Origin: a phage
Length of the DNA: 64,000 nt
Reading direction: 5' to 3' (one strand)
Sequence record: PZ168832.1
Within the stretch, counting starts at the first letter, position 1, and each line of letters begins with the position of its first letter. Below, in pieces: positions 20,991 to 54,926 of the stretch. The position numbers were made by a program, and so were the translations under genes. The notes beneath the pieces are model-generated. The model was given only the letters and a program-made list of their open reading frames with translations, was not told the DNA's origin and made no database searches.

Positions 20991-21332
20991 TTAATTTCTT
21001 TTGAGAGGAATATGACGGTGGCTGCCATTATTTGGTTTAATAATGAGCATAAAAACGATTAGAAAGATGATGGCTGATATACTTAATTCAATCAGCGCGG
21101 CTTGAGATATGGATTGGTCTTCGTGATACTGCTTTTGCATTTCCGCTTTCTTCTGAGCGCAAACTTCAGGTGATATATAATCGCCTTTTGAGTTGCCATA
21201 ATAAATCTCGCCATTCTCAGAAATAAGTCTGCCGCAAATATCAGTTTCAGCCTTTGCGCTTGACATCATAATGACGGTGCCGATGATAGCGGCAATTGTC
21301 CAGATTAGCAGTTGTGATAAAGTGTTGTTCAT
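20991..21332 (-). CDS. small membrane protein (N-terminal and C-terminal hydrophobic segments)
   Basis: Track ORF 20991..21566 trimmed to internal ATG (MNNTLSQLLIWTIAAIIG...); hairpin cccttcccacatcgggaaggg just upstream. Confidence 0.4.
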   Translation of the reverse strand: MNNTLSQLLIWTIAAIIGTVIMMSSAKAETDICGRLISENGEIYYGNSKGDYISPEVCAQKKAEMQKQYHEDQSISQAALIELSISAIIFLIVFMLIIKPNNGSHRHIPLKRN

Positions 21333-21792: not shown

Positions 21793-21973
21793 TTGTTTCT
21801 CTATTTAGCAGGTATCTGCCGCGCATTCCATGAAGGCTGAATTCAACCGTCGATGGATTAGATTTTGAAAGCCACATCGCTTGACCGTCGAATGGTCCGC
21901 CAACGCATGTGTATTTGGCTTTTGGCTCACTCCTTTTGGGCCGTTTTGCCCGCTCTTTGATTGATAGTCTCAT
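21752..21973 (-). CDS. hypothetical small basic protein
   Basis: ORF track. Confidence 0.35.
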   Translation of the reverse strand: MRLSIKERAKRPKRSEPKAKYTCVGGPFDGQAMWLSKSNPSTVEFSLHGMRGRYLLNRETSGSTFVEWKENGK

Positions 21974-22188
21974 CAGTCTTCACCTTGAGATTCAAGACAA
22001 GTAAGAACAAGCCATGTCATCGGAAGAATCAAAACCAGAGAAATAAGGGACCAGATGGACCAGCACAAGATGACAGACTTGAATGTGTGAACGTCGCCAA
22101 ACGCAGCAGTGAAACAAAATCCCATCACGAAAGCAAGCGCGGTGGAGTGGTTATCAATGGCTTTGATGGCACGGTCGATGAGTTTCAT
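21973..22188 (-). CDS. small membrane protein (two predicted TM helices)
   Basis: ALAFVMGFCFTAAFG and WSLISLVLILPMTWLVL hydrophobic stretches. Confidence 0.4.
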   Translation of the reverse strand: MKLIDRAIKAIDNHSTALAFVMGFCFTAAFGDVHTFKSVILCWSIWSLISLVLILPMTWLVLTCLESQGED

Positions 22189-45126: not shown

Positions 45127-47865
45127 ATGCAAAAGTTTGACACAAACCTGTTGCAAAACCTTAAGTGGATGCAGAACAATGCGCCAAACATCACATCTTT
45201 GGTGCAAAAGAAAAGTGACTGGTATGAAAGATACCAAGATCAGTTTTGGACTGACTGGTACAATAACATTTTTAACATTGACACTTGTGATGCAATGGGC
45301 ATTTATATTTGGTGCGACATCCTTTGCATACCAAGAGACTTTGTGGACTTAAGCAACTATGAGCACAACTGGGCGTTTGGACCCACACGCGACAATTTCG
45401 AAGGGCCGGACAATATCGGCGGCAACTTCTTTGGTGCTGGCGGAAAGGTTGTGAAAAACATCGAAGAAGCCCGCATCCTTCTGAAGCTTCGTTATCTGAC
45501 GCTTACAAGTGATGGCCGCATAGAAAGCATCAACCGTATGCTTAAGTGGATTTTCAACCGTGGAGAAGATTGGGATTACTCTTCATCGCGCTACGCATAT
45601 GTGACAGATAATACTCAAGGCGCGGTGTCTTCTTCTGAAGCAACAAACGGCTCATTCCTTCTGTACGACTGGCAGGGGTCAACTGAGATTCAGCACGATT
45701 ATAAACAAGTTCTTTTGAGCCACGGCAACAACGCAGGACTTACCATAAGTGGGGTGGCAGGGACCGTTTCGCGAATGGCACACCCAGACTGGTATTCATG
45801 GGGTAATGGTTCCGGCGCTGGTATTGTCGGTGGCGACACCAGACAGTACGGCGGCCCTGATTACTATGGACAGTTGTGTGGCGATTACCCAGGTGAGGCA
45901 ATAGAGAATTTTGCCAACGCAGTAAGGGTCGTCAAGACGGCTTCAAGCGGTGAGCCTGTGTATTCTTTGGCTAATAATCCAAGCGCACAGTCAATTGCCC
46001 TTCCTTCGCAGGCTGGCGTTAACGTTTGCTATAGCTTCTACATAAAGGTGCTTTCTGAAAACGTCGCTTCTGTTTCTGTTACAGAGAATAGTGATGCATC
46101 GAGCAATGGAAAGCTGTTTGACCCCGTCACCGGCCAGTTCAACTTGGACCCGTCATTGAGCTATTTCATCAAAGGCAAATTCGATGGAGTAAGAAGGGAA
46201 TCAAACCGTGGTGGCATAAAAGCAATTGGCGGCGATTGGTATCGAATCTGGATTGTAGAGCAGACGGCAACCGCTGCTTCTGGAGTAAGTACCAGCTTTT
46301 CAATAGAGTTGAAGGCGACTGCCGCTGGATCAACTCAAACTCGTGAATTGCCTGAAGGGTCTGATGCACTTCTTTTTGGATACTCGATTTGCGTCTGCGA
46401 CCCTGTTCAGAATCCAAATGGGCCTGAGCCTTATTTTTATGGAACGCAAAACCCTCCTTCTGACGGAACAGCAATACTGTCTGTAACGGCGGGAACGCTC
46501 AACAACATCTCCTGTGCAAACGGACCGCTGACGACAAGAAACGGTGTGGTTGGCGAGTCATTCATGCAACCTGGCTCATCACTTGCATACTCTGGCTCAA
46601 TCGGCGGCTACCCGTACCCAGGGAACGCCACATTGATTGCAGAGACTGACGGCATCAGACGCTCATGGAACGTTAGCAGGCTTGATGGAGTACCGCCGCC
46701 GCCGACCGCTGACTATTACATGGAATACGTCATCGGACCTTATTTCGCCAACAACCTGTCAGACAACTTTAAGACGCTAGTTGGCGACAGGAATGAAGGA
46801 TTCTTGCCAGCAAATGCCGGAATACGTTGGCAGCTTTACCAAGAAGTCGCAGACTTATCTGATATTGATTTGACCGTCAGCAACATAACAGACACGCGAG
46901 TAGGATTCGAAACGGAAGGTGTCGCATGGATTAACACTGACGGCATCATCAGAGTTGGCGGCATAAACGAGTGGCCGTTGAACAACTTCAAAGGTGTTAT
47001 ACGACAGCTTGAATCTTTGAAAGGTGTGAACCAAGTTATCGACGGCGCACTTGTCAACGACTATTCAATCTCAAAAGCATCAAGAGATGACTTTGGTCGT
47101 GAAATCCCACGTGCCGCGATCACAAACTACTGGCGATACACACAGCCCAATGACGGCACATCTTTTGGAAATATCGTCAAGGACGGAGATAACACGGTAA
47201 CGGCGACGCCAATCAGCGGTGTGCCCAACCAGTTCCCATCATTCAAGCTTTCCGCTACAATAGGGACTGTGCCAGCGTCCGGCTATGCACGTGCTGTACT
47301 TGCTACTAAATACACTGGCAACCTGACTGGTCCTTTGTCATTTATCGCAATAGTTAAAAACAACACGGTAAACGGTCAAAAACTTTTCGTAACCGTACCG
47401 GATGGTATGGGCGGCTATATCCCTAAATTCTACAGCATAGGCGCAGGTGATTTGCAACGTATCGAAATTGACCTTGCCGCTGAGATTGTTGCAGGAACGA
47501 CTTGGGATGGTTCGACAGGTGGAATCAGCATTGGTTTGATATCAGGGAAAGACTTGCCGACCGAAGTTGGTACGACTCTTGAACTTGATATTTTAAGCTT
47601 GATGCTTGTTTCTGGTAATACGATGAATGCTCTTGCGATTTCAACAAGCGAAGATTTTGCAAAGAAAACTGCAACTTCTATATACATCAAAAACCCAGGG
47701 TCACTGGCGACTGGAGTTCAATTGATAGCTTCGAATGGGGATGTTGTAGCGACAGTAAACTTTCCAAGAAGTGCTGCTGGCGGTTATGTTTCAAGCATGA
47801 ATATAACTGACTTGACTGGTGATTGGGCATCGACCCTTTTATCAAAAATTAAATACATCGTGTAG
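45127..47865 (+). CDS. tail fibre / baseplate-attached receptor-binding protein
   Basis: 912 aa; Gly/Ser/Thr/Asn-rich repetitive sequence; position. Confidence 0.5.
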   Translation: MQKFDTNLLQNLKWMQNNAPNITSLVQKKSDWYERYQDQFWTDWYNNIFNIDTCDAMGIYIWCDILCIPRDFVDLSNYEHNWAFGPTRDNFEGPDNIGGNFFGAGGKVVKNIEEARILLKLRYLTLTSDGRIESINRMLKWIFNRGEDWDYSSSRYAYVTDNTQGAVSSSEATNGSFLLYDWQGSTEIQHDYKQVLLSHGNNAGLTISGVAGTVSRMAHPDWYSWGNGSGAGIVGGDTRQYGGPDYYGQLCGDYPGEAIENFANAVRVVKTASSGEPVYSLANNPSAQSIALPSQAGVNVCYSFYIKVLSENVASVSVTENSDASSNGKLFDPVTGQFNLDPSLSYFIKGKFDGVRRESNRGGIKAIGGDWYRIWIVEQTATAASGVSTSFSIELKATAAGSTQTRELPEGSDALLFGYSICVCDPVQNPNGPEPYFYGTQNPPSDGTAILSVTAGTLNNISCANGPLTTRNGVVGESFMQPGSSLAYSGSIGGYPYPGNATLIAETDGIRRSWNVSRLDGVPPPPTADYYMEYVIGPYFANNLSDNFKTLVGDRNEGFLPANAGIRWQLYQEVADLSDIDLTVSNITDTRVGFETEGVAWINTDGIIRVGGINEWPLNNFKGVIRQLESLKGVNQVIDGALVNDYSISKASRDDFGREIPRAAITNYWRYTQPNDGTSFGNIVKDGDNTVTATPISGVPNQFPSFKLSATIGTVPASGYARAVLATKYTGNLTGPLSFIAIVKNNTVNGQKLFVTVPDGMGGYIPKFYSIGAGDLQRIEIDLAAEIVAGTTWDGSTGGISIGLISGKDLPTEVGTTLELDILSLMLVSGNTMNALAISTSEDFAKKTATSIYIKNPGSLATGVQLIASNGDVVATVNFPRSAAGGYVSSMNITDLTGDWASTLLSKIKYIV

Positions 47866-49671: not shown

Positions 49672-50316
49672 ATGATTAATGCAAACGTAATATCTAAAGG
49701 GACCGGATGCAGCATGGATGTCGCAGAGAAATGGGTGGACCCTTTCAAGCAGGCTTGTGAGCACTACGGAATCAAAAGCAAGAATGCCATCGCGGCATTC
49801 CTTGCAAACGTAGGAGTAGAGACAGGCAGCTTGAGAACATTTGTGGAAAATCTCAACTACTCTGCACAGGGTCTTGCCAACACGTGGCCTAGCCGTTACA
49901 GCGTCAGCGGTCGTTTCGGTGGCGCACCAAACTCCTTGGCGTTGTCGATTGCCCGTAAACCAATGGAAATCGCCAATAATACATATGCAAACCGAATGGG
50001 AAATGGTTCGGTAGCATCTGGCGACGGTTGGAAGTACCGTGGCCGTGGTGCCATTCAGCTGACTGGAAAGGACAACTATGCAGAGTATTCAAAGCAATCA
50101 GGGTATGACGCCTTGAATAACCCTGACATTTTGACTGAGCCGAAATACATCGCTGACAGCGCGGCGTGGTTCTTCAAGAACAGCGGTTGCATTCCACTTG
50201 CCGATGCGGGTGCATTTGATTCGACCGTGAAGCGGATTAACGGGGCCGCGCCGAATACGGCTAACCATGGGGATTTGCGACGGAAGCGTTACAAGGATGC
50301 ACTAGCAGTTATGTAA
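49672..50316 (+). CDS. endolysin, glycoside hydrolase family 19-like
   Basis: 214 aa; FLANVGVETGSL and YRGRGAIQLTGKDNY resemble GH19 chitinase/lysin motifs. Confidence 0.75.
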   Translation: MINANVISKGTGCSMDVAEKWVDPFKQACEHYGIKSKNAIAAFLANVGVETGSLRTFVENLNYSAQGLANTWPSRYSVSGRFGGAPNSLALSIARKPMEIANNTYANRMGNGSVASGDGWKYRGRGAIQLTGKDNYAEYSKQSGYDALNNPDILTEPKYIADSAAWFFKNSGCIPLADAGAFDSTVKRINGAAPNTANHGDLRRKRYKDALAVM

Positions 50317-50320
50317 GAAA

Positions 50321-50341
50321 AAGGCCCATATGGGCCTTTGT
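50321..50341. terminator. bidirectional terminator (aaaaaggcccatatgggccttt)
   Basis: Palindromic stem flanked by A-run and T-run between convergent genes. Confidence 0.5.
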
Positions 50342-50572
50342 TTATTTCACGGCTTCAACCTGGACTGGCGGCGCGGAACTTGTATCAATGTCTGGCAAGT
50401 CGAAGTAATACCCCGCCATGCCAATCACGCCAACAATCGCGGCCCGTGCCACCTTGTTGCTAATTGACTCCCCAATAAGCTTTACCAACAGGGACAAGAT
50501 TTGAGACGTCAAAGCCTTTTTCAGCCTTTTGTTTTCTTCCAAATCTTTCTGCATAACTACCACCCATGTCAA
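50342..50572 (-). CDS. small protein with one TM segment (76 aa)
   Basis: AAIVGVIGMAGYYF hydrophobic stretch. Confidence 0.35.
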   Translation of the reverse strand: MTWVVVMQKDLEENKRLKKALTSQILSLLVKLIGESISNKVARAAIVGVIGMAGYYFDLPDIDTSSAPPVQVEAVK

Positions 50573-51111
50573 CGCACATCCTGTGTCTTAACATTACCTG
50601 AAGCATCTCTTAAGGGCAGTGGATAGTAGGCCATTTGGTAGTCTGATACGCCTTCAACATGATAAAACACGATTACGTCTTTGCTGTTGATGAGCATGTT
50701 AACGACATCTGATTTATCTTCTGGAGTGAGTATGAGTGCGCCGCCTGTCCTGCTGTCTACTGCAACAGGGTATGTCTTGTCGACAAGGCCGCTGTCCAAT
50801 GTATTATACCTGACAACGATTTCAGCGGCATCAACTTTTGCAATTGACATTCCGAACACAAACGACACGACTTGGCGACCGCGATCATTCATTACGCACA
50901 TCTTTTCCTTATCAAACCTTTCCTTTATCACATCATATTTGTTCCAGCAAAATTCGAACGATTGGCCGTTGTTAAAATATCTCGTTAACACTTTGGCATT
51001 ACTATTTGGCGGCGTAAACATACTTTCAGCCGCTGCACTTTTGGTGAAGAACAAGACTGTCAGCATAGCCATGATGGTGATCAAAACAATCTTTAAAGTT
51101 TTCGATTTCAT
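50569..51111 (-). CDS. secreted/periplasmic protein with N-terminal signal peptide (180 aa)
   Basis: MKSKTLKIVLITIMAMLTVLFFTKSAAAE signal-like N-terminus. Confidence 0.45.
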   Translation of the reverse strand: MKSKTLKIVLITIMAMLTVLFFTKSAAAESMFTPPNSNAKVLTRYFNNGQSFEFCWNKYDVIKERFDKEKMCVMNDRGRQVVSFVFGMSIAKVDAAEIVVRYNTLDSGLVDKTYPVAVDSRTGGALILTPEDKSDVVNMLINSKDVIVFYHVEGVSDYQMAYYPLPLRDASGNVKTQDVR

Positions 51112-51202
51112 TATAATTCACCTTTTGATTACGAATATTAATAGTATAGGCCGAAGGTTTTGAAAGTAAATAAGGCGAAAGGTAAATAAAAGAAAAGCCG
51201 GA

Positions 51203-51228
51203 GATTTCCGGCTTTATGTATACACTGT
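51203..51228 (-). terminator. terminator-like hairpin (agccggagatttccggct) with U-rich flank on minus sense
   Basis: Read directly between ligase and the downstream minus gene. Confidence 0.4.
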
Positions 51229-51287
51229 ATATTAAATTCTATAAAACGACGCGATAGATTATCCGCACCAATTATTTATCTAGTGTC

Positions 51288-52250
51288 TTAAAAATACTCC
51301 ATATCGGTAATATCACGGAAGCATTTATACAAAGCAGAGCGCGGCACATCAACGATGCCAAAGTTAAAGAATTTATACGTTAGATATTTATCGCGATAGT
51401 TCTCGCGATTCTCCCAAAGCATTTTTCTCTCTGCCATAGGCATTGAACCAGCGGATACGCGGAAAGGAATCATTTCACCTTTTTCATCCACATATTTTGG
51501 ATTGACGACTACGAATGAGCCAAGGTGTCCTTTCGCAACTAAACCTTCAGCCTCTTTTGAACGCTTGGTGCGACCCAATTCGTCAATGAATGCTTCGTTG
51601 TTGTTCTCCATCATCTCAACGAAGTCTATGATCAATCCTTCTTCATCCGTCCACGGCTTGTCCTTCCACACATCACGTGACTTCGGCGTCGCGCGGCCAT
51701 GCTTGTATTTGCCCGTCCAAGACTTGCCATACAAGCCTTCATATCCAAGCTGGTCTGCTTCGATTTGCATCGCCGCGTACTGTTCCATATTTTCGATGTT
51801 TCGATATTCGAGAGCGCGAAGGAATGGGCGTCGACCATGGTTGATGAGATGTTGATTAACTTCAGCAACTCTGGCTCGATAGTTTGCATAACGCTTTTCA
51901 AAAGGCAGATCAGGGTCGCTGAAGTCATCAAACACCCACCATGTAAAGTTAGTTATTGCGTCAGTATTCATGCATGCAGTATAGGCCTGTTGCATTACGT
52001 TCTTATCATTTGGATTGCCGTCGATTAGCTCTCCATCAAGTCCGTGAATTAGTTCACCCAAAAAGAGGAACTCTTTTTTGATTTGAACGTTGCGCAACGG
52101 CATGCCGGAAGTGCCCATTGGCAAGTTGTCATACGCCATTGCACGTATGCCATCGACCTTGAATGACAGTCCGCAAGGCAGCGGCACGTCTTCGCCGCGC
52201 TCGATAATCTGCTTACGTTGGCAACCCTTCATTGGTTTTAATGCTGTCAT
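51288..52250 (-). CDS. ATP-dependent DNA ligase
   Basis: 320 aa; motif I FKVDGIRA (KxDG), motif III-like LDGELIDG. Confidence 0.7.
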   Translation of the reverse strand: MTALKPMKGCQRKQIIERGEDVPLPCGLSFKVDGIRAMAYDNLPMGTSGMPLRNVQIKKEFLFLGELIHGLDGELIDGNPNDKNVMQQAYTACMNTDAITNFTWWVFDDFSDPDLPFEKRYANYRARVAEVNQHLINHGRRPFLRALEYRNIENMEQYAAMQIEADQLGYEGLYGKSWTGKYKHGRATPKSRDVWKDKPWTDEEGLIIDFVEMMENNNEAFIDELGRTKRSKEAEGLVAKGHLGSFVVVNPKYVDEKGEMIPFRVSAGSMPMAERKMLWENRENYRDKYLTYKFFNFGIVDVPRSALYKCFRDITDMEYF

Positions 52251-52252
52251 AA

Positions 52253-52876
52253 TTATTGTCCTGTAACTTCTCTGATCACACGGTCTTCAAGTTCCAGCTT
52301 CTTTACCATTTTGCAGGAGTGCTCATAAGCTGGATCAGTCGATTTGATAAACGTGCCGTTGTACATGACACCTTTGCGGTCCTTGATGTCTTCGTAGGCC
52401 GCTTGCGCACAGTCGGATAATCGAAGGCCATAATCATGAGCTACGCCGGAAAGGTAATCGACTGCGGCCATGATAGTGACGTCAATATCCATGGCCTGAT
52501 TCTTGGCAATAGCATCACCAAGTCGTCCAAGGGTCTTTGCCAGGCGAAGGATAAATGAATGAGGGTGAGCGCCCTTATCAGCGCAACCGCCGCCATTAAT
52601 GTTTTCGATTTCAGTACCGTTTTGCGCTGCCAGGATGGCCAACACAACAAGGCAATCGCCGATGTCGTCCTTAATTGCCGCCTGCAAGTCACAGATGGCC
52701 TGCTCTGTATATCCAATTTCAGGGTCAAAGAACACAAGGTCATGGAGTTGATCAACGTGGTCGGTTAACTCCCCAAACTCGCTGATAAGCTTCGGATATT
52801 GGTCTTTAAGGTCGCAACCTTGGATGATGTTACGGTCAGAAGCCCACTGGCGAATGTTTGCATAAATCTGGTTCAT
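52253..52876 (-). CDS. possible MazG-like nucleotide pyrophosphohydrolase
   Basis: 207 aa; KLISEFGELTDHV resembles the EExGE-type helix; weak call. Confidence 0.3.
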   Translation of the reverse strand: MNQIYANIRQWASDRNIIQGCDLKDQYPKLISEFGELTDHVDQLHDLVFFDPEIGYTEQAICDLQAAIKDDIGDCLVVLAILAAQNGTEIENINGGGCADKGAHPHSFILRLAKTLGRLGDAIAKNQAMDIDVTIMAAVDYLSGVAHDYGLRLSDCAQAAYEDIKDRKGVMYNGTFIKSTDPAYEHSCKMVKKLELEDRVIREVTGQ

Positions 52877-53391
52877 TTATTTTCCTTTGATGCATTTAAT
52901 TGATCGATTTTTATTTTAGCCTGATTATAAGTATCAATCAAGCTATTAACTTTCTCTTTTAATCGGTTTGTTTCTGCGGCGAACTGAACAAGAAATCTGA
53001 CATCCTCTTCTGATAGTCCACAGTTTCCTTCTGGGATAGAGAGGCGTCCAGTGGTCGCAGAGTCGGGCACACTCCTGAGTAACTCACGGGAGCAGCTGAG
53101 TTGCTCGCGCAGCTTGATATTCCCAGACTTGTAACGAGCAATAGTGTCATCAGCAACCAGTTGCGCTTCCTGGCGACCCTTCTCATATGCCGATGCCGAT
53201 TCAACCTGTAAAGTTGCAATTTGCTCTTCGAGTGCATTTATCTTGTCCTTACGCTCATTAAGCGATGTCAGATATTGATTATCCTTGGCCAGTGATGCGT
53301 TGGTTTGCTGCAGGTCTTCAACGTATGATCCAGCGGCAAACGCACCAACAAGGGCCAGAATCTTCAGGAGCGGTACAATTCTTTCTATCAT
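52873..53391 (-). CDS. i-spanin-like protein (Rz-like)
   Basis: N-terminal TM (LLKILALVGAFAAG) followed by coiled-coil; contains an embedded +1-frame lipoprotein ORF. Confidence 0.45.
   Translation of the reverse strand: MIERIVPLLKILALVGAFAAGSYVEDLQQTNASLAKDNQYLTSLNERKDKINALEEQIATLQVESASAYEKGRQEAQLVADDTIARYKSGNIKLREQLSCSRELLRSVPDSATTGRLSIPEGNCGLSEEDVRFLVQFAAETNRLKEKVNSLIDTYNQAKIKIDQLNASKENK
52959..53186 (-). CDS. o-spanin-like embedded lipoprotein (Rz1-like)
   Basis: Track ORF 52959..53237 from internal Met: MRRVARKRNWLLMTLLLVTSLGISSC, signal peptide plus lipobox ISSC; entirely inside the i-spanin-like gene in another frame. Confidence 0.4.
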   Translation of the reverse strand: MRRVARKRNWLLMTLLLVTSLGISSCASNSAAPVSYSGVCPTLRPLDASLSQKETVDYQKRMSDFLFSSPQKQTD

Positions 53392-53448
53392 GATGCACCA
53401 GATAAATAAAAGGCCGCCAAACGGCAGCCTTGTTGATTTGATTGTCGA

Positions 53449-54368: not shown

Positions 54369-54926
54369 TTACTTTTTGCTTTTAGGCAAGGTTATTTTAG
54401 CTTCTTTGTATTCAAAAACGCTAATATCTTCACTAACTGGATTGCCCGCTTCCAGCTGTTCTTTTACAAACGACTTCAGTGTAGCAGAATGAACGCCTTG
54501 TTTCAACGTGGCTTCAACACCATCTTCACGCAGCGCGGCAACAATCTCTTGCGCCTGTTCGATTTCTTCGCGACCGAACTCAGCCGTGACGCTGGACTTG
54601 ATCAAGCCGCCGTAACCGTTGTTGACAAGCCAATCGAAAACTTTTAATTCGTTTTCTTTCTTGATTGAAGCGTTCACCTTGGACTCGACCTTGATTTTGG
54701 TCTTGTCCTCAAGCTTGATTTCGGACACGCCAAGCTCATCCATAACGCCAGGAAGCAGAACAGTTTTGATTTCACTGATGCGCTGCTTTTGCATATCAGC
54801 TTCATCTTCAAGCTTTGTCAAAACTTCTTGTCGTTCTGCCAGTTCAGACACTAAGCGCGCAAGGCGCTCTTGAATGCTCTCAGGAGCAACCTGCGGCAAA
54901 TCATCTTCCCAATTAATATTGCTCAT
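54369..54926 (-). CDS. hypothetical protein with coiled-coil N-terminus (185 aa)
   Basis: ORF track. Confidence 0.4.
   Translation of the reverse strand: MSNINWEDDLPQVAPESIQERLARLVSELAERQEVLTKLEDEADMQKQRISEIKTVLLPGVMDELGVSEIKLEDKTKIKVESKVNASIKKENELKVFDWLVNNGYGGLIKSSVTAEFGREEIEQAQEIVAALREDGVEATLKQGVHSATLKSFVKEQLEAGNPVSEDISVFEYKEAKITLPKSKK

Follow-up and report, generated by a model that had tools for sequence, protein, structure and literature searches.

Why does a gene pair with the layout of phage spanins lie among replication genes, and does such a pair encode a working spanin? We addressed this question for positions 52873–53391 (minus strand) of a 64,000-nt stretch of phage DNA (sequence record PZ168832.1), referred to below as the window. 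Over the 5 kb around the pair, the window shares 98.7% identity with Escherichia phage vB_EcoM_WFC; its identity to 28 further records over these 5 kb, all of them from Wifcevirus myophages (E. coli or Shigella), is 93–98%. By this measure of identity the window is that of a Wifcevirus coliphage. Members of this genus are distantly related to the PB1-like phages of Pseudomonas (Pbunavirus). We conclude with high confidence that the region encodes a functional two-component spanin of embedded (Rz/Rz1-type) architecture. The pair is already known, having been both published and annotated, and as a feature it is an ordinary one.

A reading of the letters made earlier, called here the sequence-only reading, had described an outer gene at 52873–53391 with a second open reading frame (ORF) fully inside it in another frame, the outer protein consisting of an N-terminal transmembrane helix plus coiled-coil and the inner one being a lipoprotein with signal peptide and lipobox. 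Each of these elements was recovered. Both ORFs are present on the minus strand (Table 1), and the inner one, occupying nt 155–433 of the 519-nt outer gene, is wholly embedded; as its offset is 154 nt (154 mod 3 = 1), it is read in the +1 frame. The outer protein (i-spanin) has one hydrophobic segment followed by predicted helices with a modest heptad score, and in the inner protein (o-spanin) pattern and hydropathy give a basic n-region, an h-region and the sequence I-S-S-C.

Residues 5–23 are the sole hydrophobic segment of the i-spanin, in keeping with a single N-terminal transmembrane domain (TMD), and we take this segment to be a signal-anchor. The most hydrophobic 15-aa window within it, IVPLLKILALVGAFA, covers residues 5–19 and has a Kyte–Doolittle (KD) value of 2.3. 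An AlphaFold2 model built on six homologues, with a mean predicted local distance difference test (pLDDT) score of 80, comprises a helix at residues 5–106, a coil at 107–127 and a second helix at 128–171. A crude heptad score peaks at about residues 25–75 and 133–172 and is strongest in the first periplasmic helix (alpha1), at about 25–75; its observed maximum is attained by 4.6% of shuffled sequences, which is modest support for a coiled-coil. C100 and C124 are invariant among the aligned i-spanin homologues, suggesting that the periplasmic cysteines for homotypic disulfides are present. The profile of PHROG 1327, 'Rz-like spanin', matches the protein with an E-value of 1.2e-26 (residues 6–160 vs. 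profile positions 9–156 of 158). By analogy with lambda Rz, the second helix (alpha2) would be the end of the i-spanin that contacts the o-spanin. As a separate observation, the i-spanin gene of vB_EcoM_WFC (L008:6001-6520) carries a 1-nt indel near its 3′ end, so that the product ends in ...SKEK vs. ...SKENK and the junction with MazG is shifted; the indel sits beyond the o-spanin ORF.

The inner protein reads MHSKSKLQLYRLNRHRHMRRVARKRNWLLMTLLLVTSLGISS up to the lipobox cysteine and continues as CASNS..., its lipoprotein signal being judged by pattern and hydropathy only. Asp at position +2 of a lipoprotein is an inner-membrane retention signal. Because residue +2 of the o-spanin is Ala and not Asp, we propose that the protein would be sorted to the outer membrane. 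Its start differs by source: Kongari et al. (2018) place it at 53186 (Met18; 75 aa, beginning MRRVARK), while the records of phages Mansfield and Bas99 place it at 53237 (Met1; 92 aa, beginning MHSKSK). The 53237 start is supported by the retention of AAGGA and ATG in each of the four diverged lineages while the outer-frame residue at this place varies (N, Y, H, D); the 53186 start is supported by a constraint on the outer third codon position that starts only at Met18 and by the signals of distant homologues, which are 14–19 aa long. Both starts lead to an identical mature lipoprotein.

The pair is classed as already known because Kongari et al. (2018) and the Mansfield and BASEL records hold the same genes. 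In the survey of Kongari et al. (2018) the pair of phage ECML-117 (JX128258; i-spanin at 45375-45894, o-spanin at 45461-45689) is listed, with both subunits, among the embedded singleton families. The i-spanin (EIS) is given there as 172 aa, with a 24-aa TMD region, a 148-aa periplasmic domain containing 2 Cys and one coiled-coil segment, and the o-spanin (EOS) as 75 aa, with a lipoprotein signal of 25 aa, the lipobox GISS/C and a mature part of 50 aa, which makes 3 periplasmic Cys in the pair. Each ECML-117 subunit differs from that of the window by one or two residues. Outer proteins 96–99% identical to ours, placed in the same way relative to MazG and the gp34-like gene, are found in ECML-117, Mansfield and Bas98-101. 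Both genes are annotated in Mansfield (CPT_Mansfield_057/058) and in the BASEL phages Bas98-101 (GenBank MK903282, PQ850618), and RefSeq labels the outer gene "Rz-like spanin". Publication and GenBank annotation are independent identifications of the pair and count in favour of a spanin. In several primary GenBank records (e.g. WFC, FEC19, vB_Eco4M-7, EC150) both genes stand as 'hypothetical protein', and the genome announcements of Mansfield and MyoSmar do not discuss lysis genes.

The case for two coding frames was examined by chance expectation and by comparison with relatives. Among 20,000 synonymous recodings of the outer gene, with codons drawn from the phage's own usage, 8.3% yielded an alternative-frame ORF of at least 92 aa, and the length of the ORF was for this reason rejected as evidence. 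An ORF with a lipoprotein-like N-terminus appeared in only 0.5% of the recodings. The comparison set consisted of three metagenomic relatives (L003-L005) whose outer proteins are 62–66% identical to that of the window. In all three, the +1 ORF has been retained together with the lipobox LAIS[GS]C, the motif GVCPTL.PL.ASLSQ.ET.DYQ and the three periplasmic cysteines (C100, C124 and the second Cys of the o-spanin), and both frames are intact in six close relatives as well (9 relatives in total). The third codon position of the outer frame is the second position of the inner frame. Across four lineages, divergence at this position is 0.60 upstream of the overlap and 0.56 in the first 17 inner codons; in the signal peptide it drops to 0.30, in the mature lipoprotein to 0.21, and downstream it is 0.38. 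Purifying selection is thus visible in both frames of these alignments.

Homology to known lysis genes points the same way. A tblastn search of 50,697 phage records with the outer protein returned the Wifcevirus orthologues and then the i-spanins of Yersinia phage PY54 (29% identity), Burkholderia phage Mica (33%), Pantoea phage LIET2 (46%, over only the C-terminal 41% of the protein) and Yersinia phage P744. As in the window, the genes of PY54 (p62), Mica and LIET2 encode outer proteins of 166–173 aa and carry an embedded lipoprotein in the +1 frame, in PY54 again with a mature part of 50 aa; their o-spanin signals are short, unlike that of the 92-aa form of the window. The embedded lipoproteins are 50% (PY54), 46% (LIET2) and 41% (Mica) identical to our inner protein. 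They hold in common the motif C-P-x-(L/M)-P-P-(L/V)-D-x-x-L-x-Q-x-E-T-x-D-(Y/F)-Q-x-x-M-S-x-F-L-F as well as the lipobox Cys and a second mature Cys, the latter found also in L003-L005. In the comparisons with PY54 and Mica the inner frame is better conserved than the outer one, as would be expected only if it encodes a selected protein. The PY54 homologue directly follows the holin and endolysin genes, and that of Mica, with its embedded o-spanin annotated, follows a class II holin and a signal-arrest-release (SAR) endolysin. In both phages the pair forms the end of a holin-endolysin-spanin cassette, whereas in the window it is part of a replication operon. Judged from these alignments, the inner and outer genes act as one unit whose homologues are the pairs of canonical lysis cassettes.

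The sequence-only reading had taken the pair for an Rz/Rz1-like spanin, 2.5 kb from the endolysin and on the other strand, lying among replication genes so that lysis functions would be dispersed. The match to PHROG 1327 and the homology of both proteins to the cassette pairs of PY54 and Mica support this identity. The convergent endolysin gene (plus strand) ends at 50316, 2,557 bp from the pair at 52873 on the minus strand. The pair stands between the Pam3-gp34-like gene and the MazG and ligase genes, an arrangement consistent with dispersed lysis functions, for which the virulent myophage T4 offers a precedent.

Our data show the gene anatomy, the homology of the two frames, the constraint on each of them and the operon context. 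The further steps, from membrane sorting through complex formation and disulfides to fusion and timing, we infer from the lambda and T4 models as follows. The N-terminal helix of the i-spanin would anchor it in the inner membrane, with the two coiled-coil-prone helices and the flexible linker projecting into the periplasm. The o-spanin, translated from the +1 frame of the same mRNA, would be exported, lipidated on Cys43 and cleaved by signal peptidase II, and would come to rest in the outer membrane, in its inner leaflet. The two proteins may then bind each other by their C-terminal ends, and the three conserved periplasmic cysteines may give disulfide-linked homodimers, yielding a complex that spans the periplasm and is threaded through the peptidoglycan, whose mesh would keep it inactive until the endolysin removes the wall. 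After a holin has given the soluble GH19 endolysin access to the wall and the wall has been degraded, a conformational change of the freed complexes would fuse or disrupt the two membranes. As long as the wall is intact a spanin does no harm; late, cassette-linked expression would accordingly not be needed, and expression together with replication genes would be compatible with such a function. The pair is probably transcribed with MazG and the ligase by read-through of the conserved terminator that follows the Pam3-gp34-like gene, at a level that is probably reduced.

Several points weigh against a functional spanin. Neither protein has a Pfam match at E 0.01; up to E 10 the outer protein gave only coiled-coil noise, and the lambda Rz family (Phage_lysis) was not matched up to that same value. 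Given the absent match, we place the pair in the functional class of two-component spanins and not in the lambda Rz/Rz1 sequence families. This agrees with its listing by Kongari et al. (2018), where the ECML-117 i-spanin is a singleton outside the 83-member lambda i-spanin family. The PHROG match of the inner protein is weak (E 8e-4). Its mature part has 4 Pro in 50 aa, and lambda Rz1 is presumably more proline-rich than this. The N-terminal segment of the i-spanin ends in an AXA-like motif (AFA/AG), which could in principle make it a cleavable signal. No promoter-like site was seen between the upstream hairpin and the i-spanin ATG, the pair lies outside any contiguous holin-endolysin-spanin cassette, and no holin is annotated in Mansfield (1–35 kb) or in the whole of Bas99. 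Finally, our literature search found no experiment on the pair in any Wifcevirus. As T4 demonstrates, adjacency to a cassette is not a defining spanin feature.

Three other explanations were considered against this background. The pair could be a genuine i-/o-spanin-like complex whose main role is not terminal lysis but early envelope remodelling (e.g. superinfection exclusion, stabilising of the envelope in a very fast infection, or membrane tethering), with another protein disrupting the outer membrane at the lysis stage. Its place in a replication and nucleotide-metabolism operon, with a stop codon overlapping the MazG start, would suit such a role, as would the lack of a known holin or lysis cassette in the genus and the extremely short latent period reported for Wifcevirus (development done in about 10 min in one study; 3–5 min cited in the BASEL paper). 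We hold this to be very unlikely, as the homologues of both proteins are encoded at the end of canonical lysis cassettes, the T4 spanin genes are likewise unlinked from e and t and yet complement lambda Rz/Rz1, and no alternative candidate for an outer-membrane disruptor was found in the window. A unimolecular spanin of the T1 gp11 type was also rejected: the outer protein lacks a lipobox and carries its TMD at the N-terminus, and a C-terminal TMD is absent from the inner protein.

It is also conceivable that only the outer gene is functional, as a membrane-anchored coiled-coil protein with another role, and that the inner ORF is a by-product of its sequence. ORFs of this length do arise in the recodings, for the inner protein Pfam gives no match and PHROG a weak one only, and its first 17 codons display no constraint. 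However, the rarity of a lipoprotein-like N-terminus among the recodings, the retention of inner frame, lipobox and Cys at 62–66% identity together with the three-fold drop in outer third-position divergence, the 41–50% identity to other embedded lipoproteins (vs. only 29–33% for the outer proteins of PY54 and Mica), and the conservation of the Shine-Dalgarno sequence and ATG despite amino-acid changes in the outer frame together make this explanation extremely unlikely. A decaying remnant of a temperate-phage cassette, no longer contributing to lysis, would fit with the closest homologues outside the genus, which include those of the temperate-type phages PY54 and Mica with their canonical cassettes, and with the presence of other genes in the same slot in related genera; but both frames are intact in every genome examined and under purifying selection, and the cysteines are invariant, so that we assign this account a practically negligible probability. 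A functional embedded spanin is thus the reading that we retain.

The features of the pair and of its surroundings are collected in Table 1. On the minus strand the genes run in the order DNA polymerase III (PolIII) exonuclease subunit, PolIII alpha, two helicase genes, a small ORF, DUF7307 (Pam3 gp33-like), Pam3_Gp34-like, the spanin pair, the MazG-like pyrophosphatase and the ATP-dependent ligase. The order is unchanged in all three diverged metagenomic relatives. The TGA of the i-spanin gene (52873-52875) overlaps the MazG ATG (52874-52876) in a shared ATGA, and a terminator-like hairpin stands directly upstream of the i-spanin start, about 20 nt from its ATG, a gap too short for a promoter. 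The Mansfield record also marks this hairpin as a terminator. Overlap and upstream terminator together support co-transcription of the pair with MazG and the ligase, and terminator-like sites after the ligase (51194-51270) close the transcription unit. The hairpin may act as an attenuator for the slot gene, MazG and the ligase. The gp34-like protein encoded before it was reported as abundant by mass spectrometry in vB_Eco4M-7 and ECML-117 lysates. A 'U-spanin' label, given in phage JJ01 (via PHASTER/E215) to a gene beside the SNF2 helicase that we take by position and size as the DUF7307 homologue, was rejected for the window: its DUF7307 protein (54369-54926, minus) has neither Cys nor a hydrophobic segment.

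Table 1. Coordinates of the embedded spanin pair, its predicted parts and neighbouring features in the window.
Feature	Position	Strand	Basis
i-spanin gene, 172 aa, Rz-like	52873..53391	minus	ORF, PHROG 1327, tblastn, listed as ECML-117 EIS
i-spanin N-terminal transmembrane segment, about residues 5-23, IVPLLKILALVGAFAAGSY	53323..53379	minus	hydropathy, AlphaFold2 helix start
Periplasmic helix alpha1, residues 24-106, invariant Cys100 (codon 53092-53094)	53074..53322	minus	AlphaFold2, heptad score, invariant columns
Unstructured linker, residues 107-127, invariant Cys124 (codon 53020-53022)	53011..53073	minus	AlphaFold2, invariant columns
Periplasmic helix alpha2, residues 128-172	52876..53010	minus	AlphaFold2, heptad score
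o-spanin ORF, +1 frame, 92 aa from ATG at 53237	52959..53237	minus	ORF scan; records of Mansfield, Bas99; Kongari supplement
o-spanin lipoprotein signal peptide: basic n-region, h-region LLMTLLLVTSLGI, I-S-S directly before Cys43	53112..53237	minus	pattern, hydropathy
Mature o-spanin, 50 aa, predicted lipidated Cys43 (codon 53109-53111), second Cys57 (codon 53067-53069)	52962..53111	minus	pattern
AAGGA Shine-Dalgarno sequence of the o-spanin, 8 nt before its ATG at 53237	53246..53250	minus	sequence; conserved in relatives
Intrinsic-terminator-like hairpin (53410-53431; 9-bp stem, 6 GC pairs, 4-nt loop) plus T-tract	53400..53431	minus	sequence; Mansfield record
MazG-like pyrophosphatase	52253-52876	minus	ORF, profile search
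ATP-dependent DNA ligase, abuts MazG	51288-52250	minus	ORF, profile search
Endolysin, GH19/chitinase-like	49672..50316	plus	PHROG 181, E 2e-70

The endolysin, presumed to be the functional partner whose action releases the spanin, has no N-terminal membrane segment and ends the plus-strand tail module. Between it and the convergent minus-strand genes lies a palindromic hairpin, AAAGGCCCATATGGGCCTTT, at 50320-50339, which looks like a bidirectional terminator; Mansfield annotates a terminator here on both strands. A 180-aa ORF between endolysin and ligase (50569-51111, minus) belongs to no PHROG family; its product, which carries a signal-peptide-like segment at the N-terminus (...FFTKSAAAES...), is probably secreted or periplasmic. 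The 180-aa ORF is followed by a 70-aa ORF (50342-50554) belonging to PHROG 5165, a family without assigned function. In a minus-strand cluster between the terminase large subunit gene and a tail fibre gene we observed a 71-aa protein with two hydrophobic segments (21973-22188, minus) and a 113-aa protein (20991-21332, minus) that contains two Cys, is hydrophobic near the N-terminus and very hydrophobic in a C-terminal segment, and has a basic tail. The layout of both proteins is holin-like, and neither has a PHROG match; PHROG searches of small membrane ORFs gave no matches, and literature searches for a Pbunavirus holin yielded nothing useful.

In sister genera the slot between the gp34-like gene and MazG holds other genes. 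Pbunavirus E215 (gp30, L014:6789-7397) and Myosmarvirus/Serratia phage WR01 (L015:6940-7545) have there a 200-aa protein of PHROG 1544 with a Gly/Ala-rich hydrophobic N-terminus, a central coiled-coil-like stretch and C-terminal hydrophobic segment(s); it contains no Cys and its gene no embedded lipoprotein, and no homologue of it was found in the window. A 'holin' label on the WR01 slot gene is unsupported, and the MTx authors stated that holin and spanin had not been identified. The slot of the Carpasinavirus Xanthomonas phage XcP1 (L018:4942-5869) contains gp038 (199 aa) and then a separate gp037, a 108-aa lipoprotein with the lipobox TVGC, both recorded as 'hypothetical protein'. The latter matches PHROG 11951, 'Rz-like spanin' (E 7e-21), and the former, a membrane/coiled-coil protein with several N-terminal hydrophobic segments and a helical C-terminal domain, falls in a PHROG without assigned function. 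The spanin-like XcP1 pair thus occupies the same slot after the hairpin as ours, but its architecture is separated and its sequences are unrelated.

A GC-rich hairpin after the gp34-like gene was present in 7/7 lineages (the window, L003-L005, E215, WR01 and XcP1), with a weak T-tract in XcP1. The shared position suggests that envelope-disruption genes have replaced one another non-orthologously at a fixed place, and since non-homologous envelope genes share the slot, the PHROG 1544 gene is, by position, a candidate lysis gene. That the slot after the conserved hairpin is an ancestral, swappable envelope-disruption slot across the PB1-like supergroup is a tentative idea that we consider rather doubtful. 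If it were true, the PHROG 1544 protein would serve lysis, either as a holin or as a new outer-membrane disruptor, in the Pbunavirus phages that are used in therapy, and pre-loading of spanin from the replication operon might add to the very short latent period of Wifcevirus.

With a functional spanin, Wifcevirus would carry a complete outer-membrane disruption function, and the 'hypothetical protein' records could be corrected. Embedded spanins are well documented, and so are dispersed lysis genes, which leaves little new biology here. A modest value lies in the discrepancy of the o-spanin start, in the co-transcription behind a conserved terminator and in a slot with non-homologous genes that leads to a Pbunavirus lysis candidate.

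The pair was also compared with the two model systems. In lambda, as here, Rz1 lies within Rz in the +1 frame, the i-spanin has the domain order TMD, alpha1, linker and alpha2, and two periplasmic Cys in the i-spanin are matched by one in the mature o-spanin. The o-spanin of the window is presumably longer than that of lambda. The lambda spanin genes adjoin S and R, whereas the window pair has no adjacent S/R equivalents. In this respect it resembles PseT.3/PseT.2 of T4, a two-component spanin whose genes lie away from those of the holin (t) and endolysin (e) but complement lambda Rz/Rz1. Yet the T4 genes are separated, their i-spanin has no Cys and their o-spanin two, and there is no sequence similarity to the window pair.

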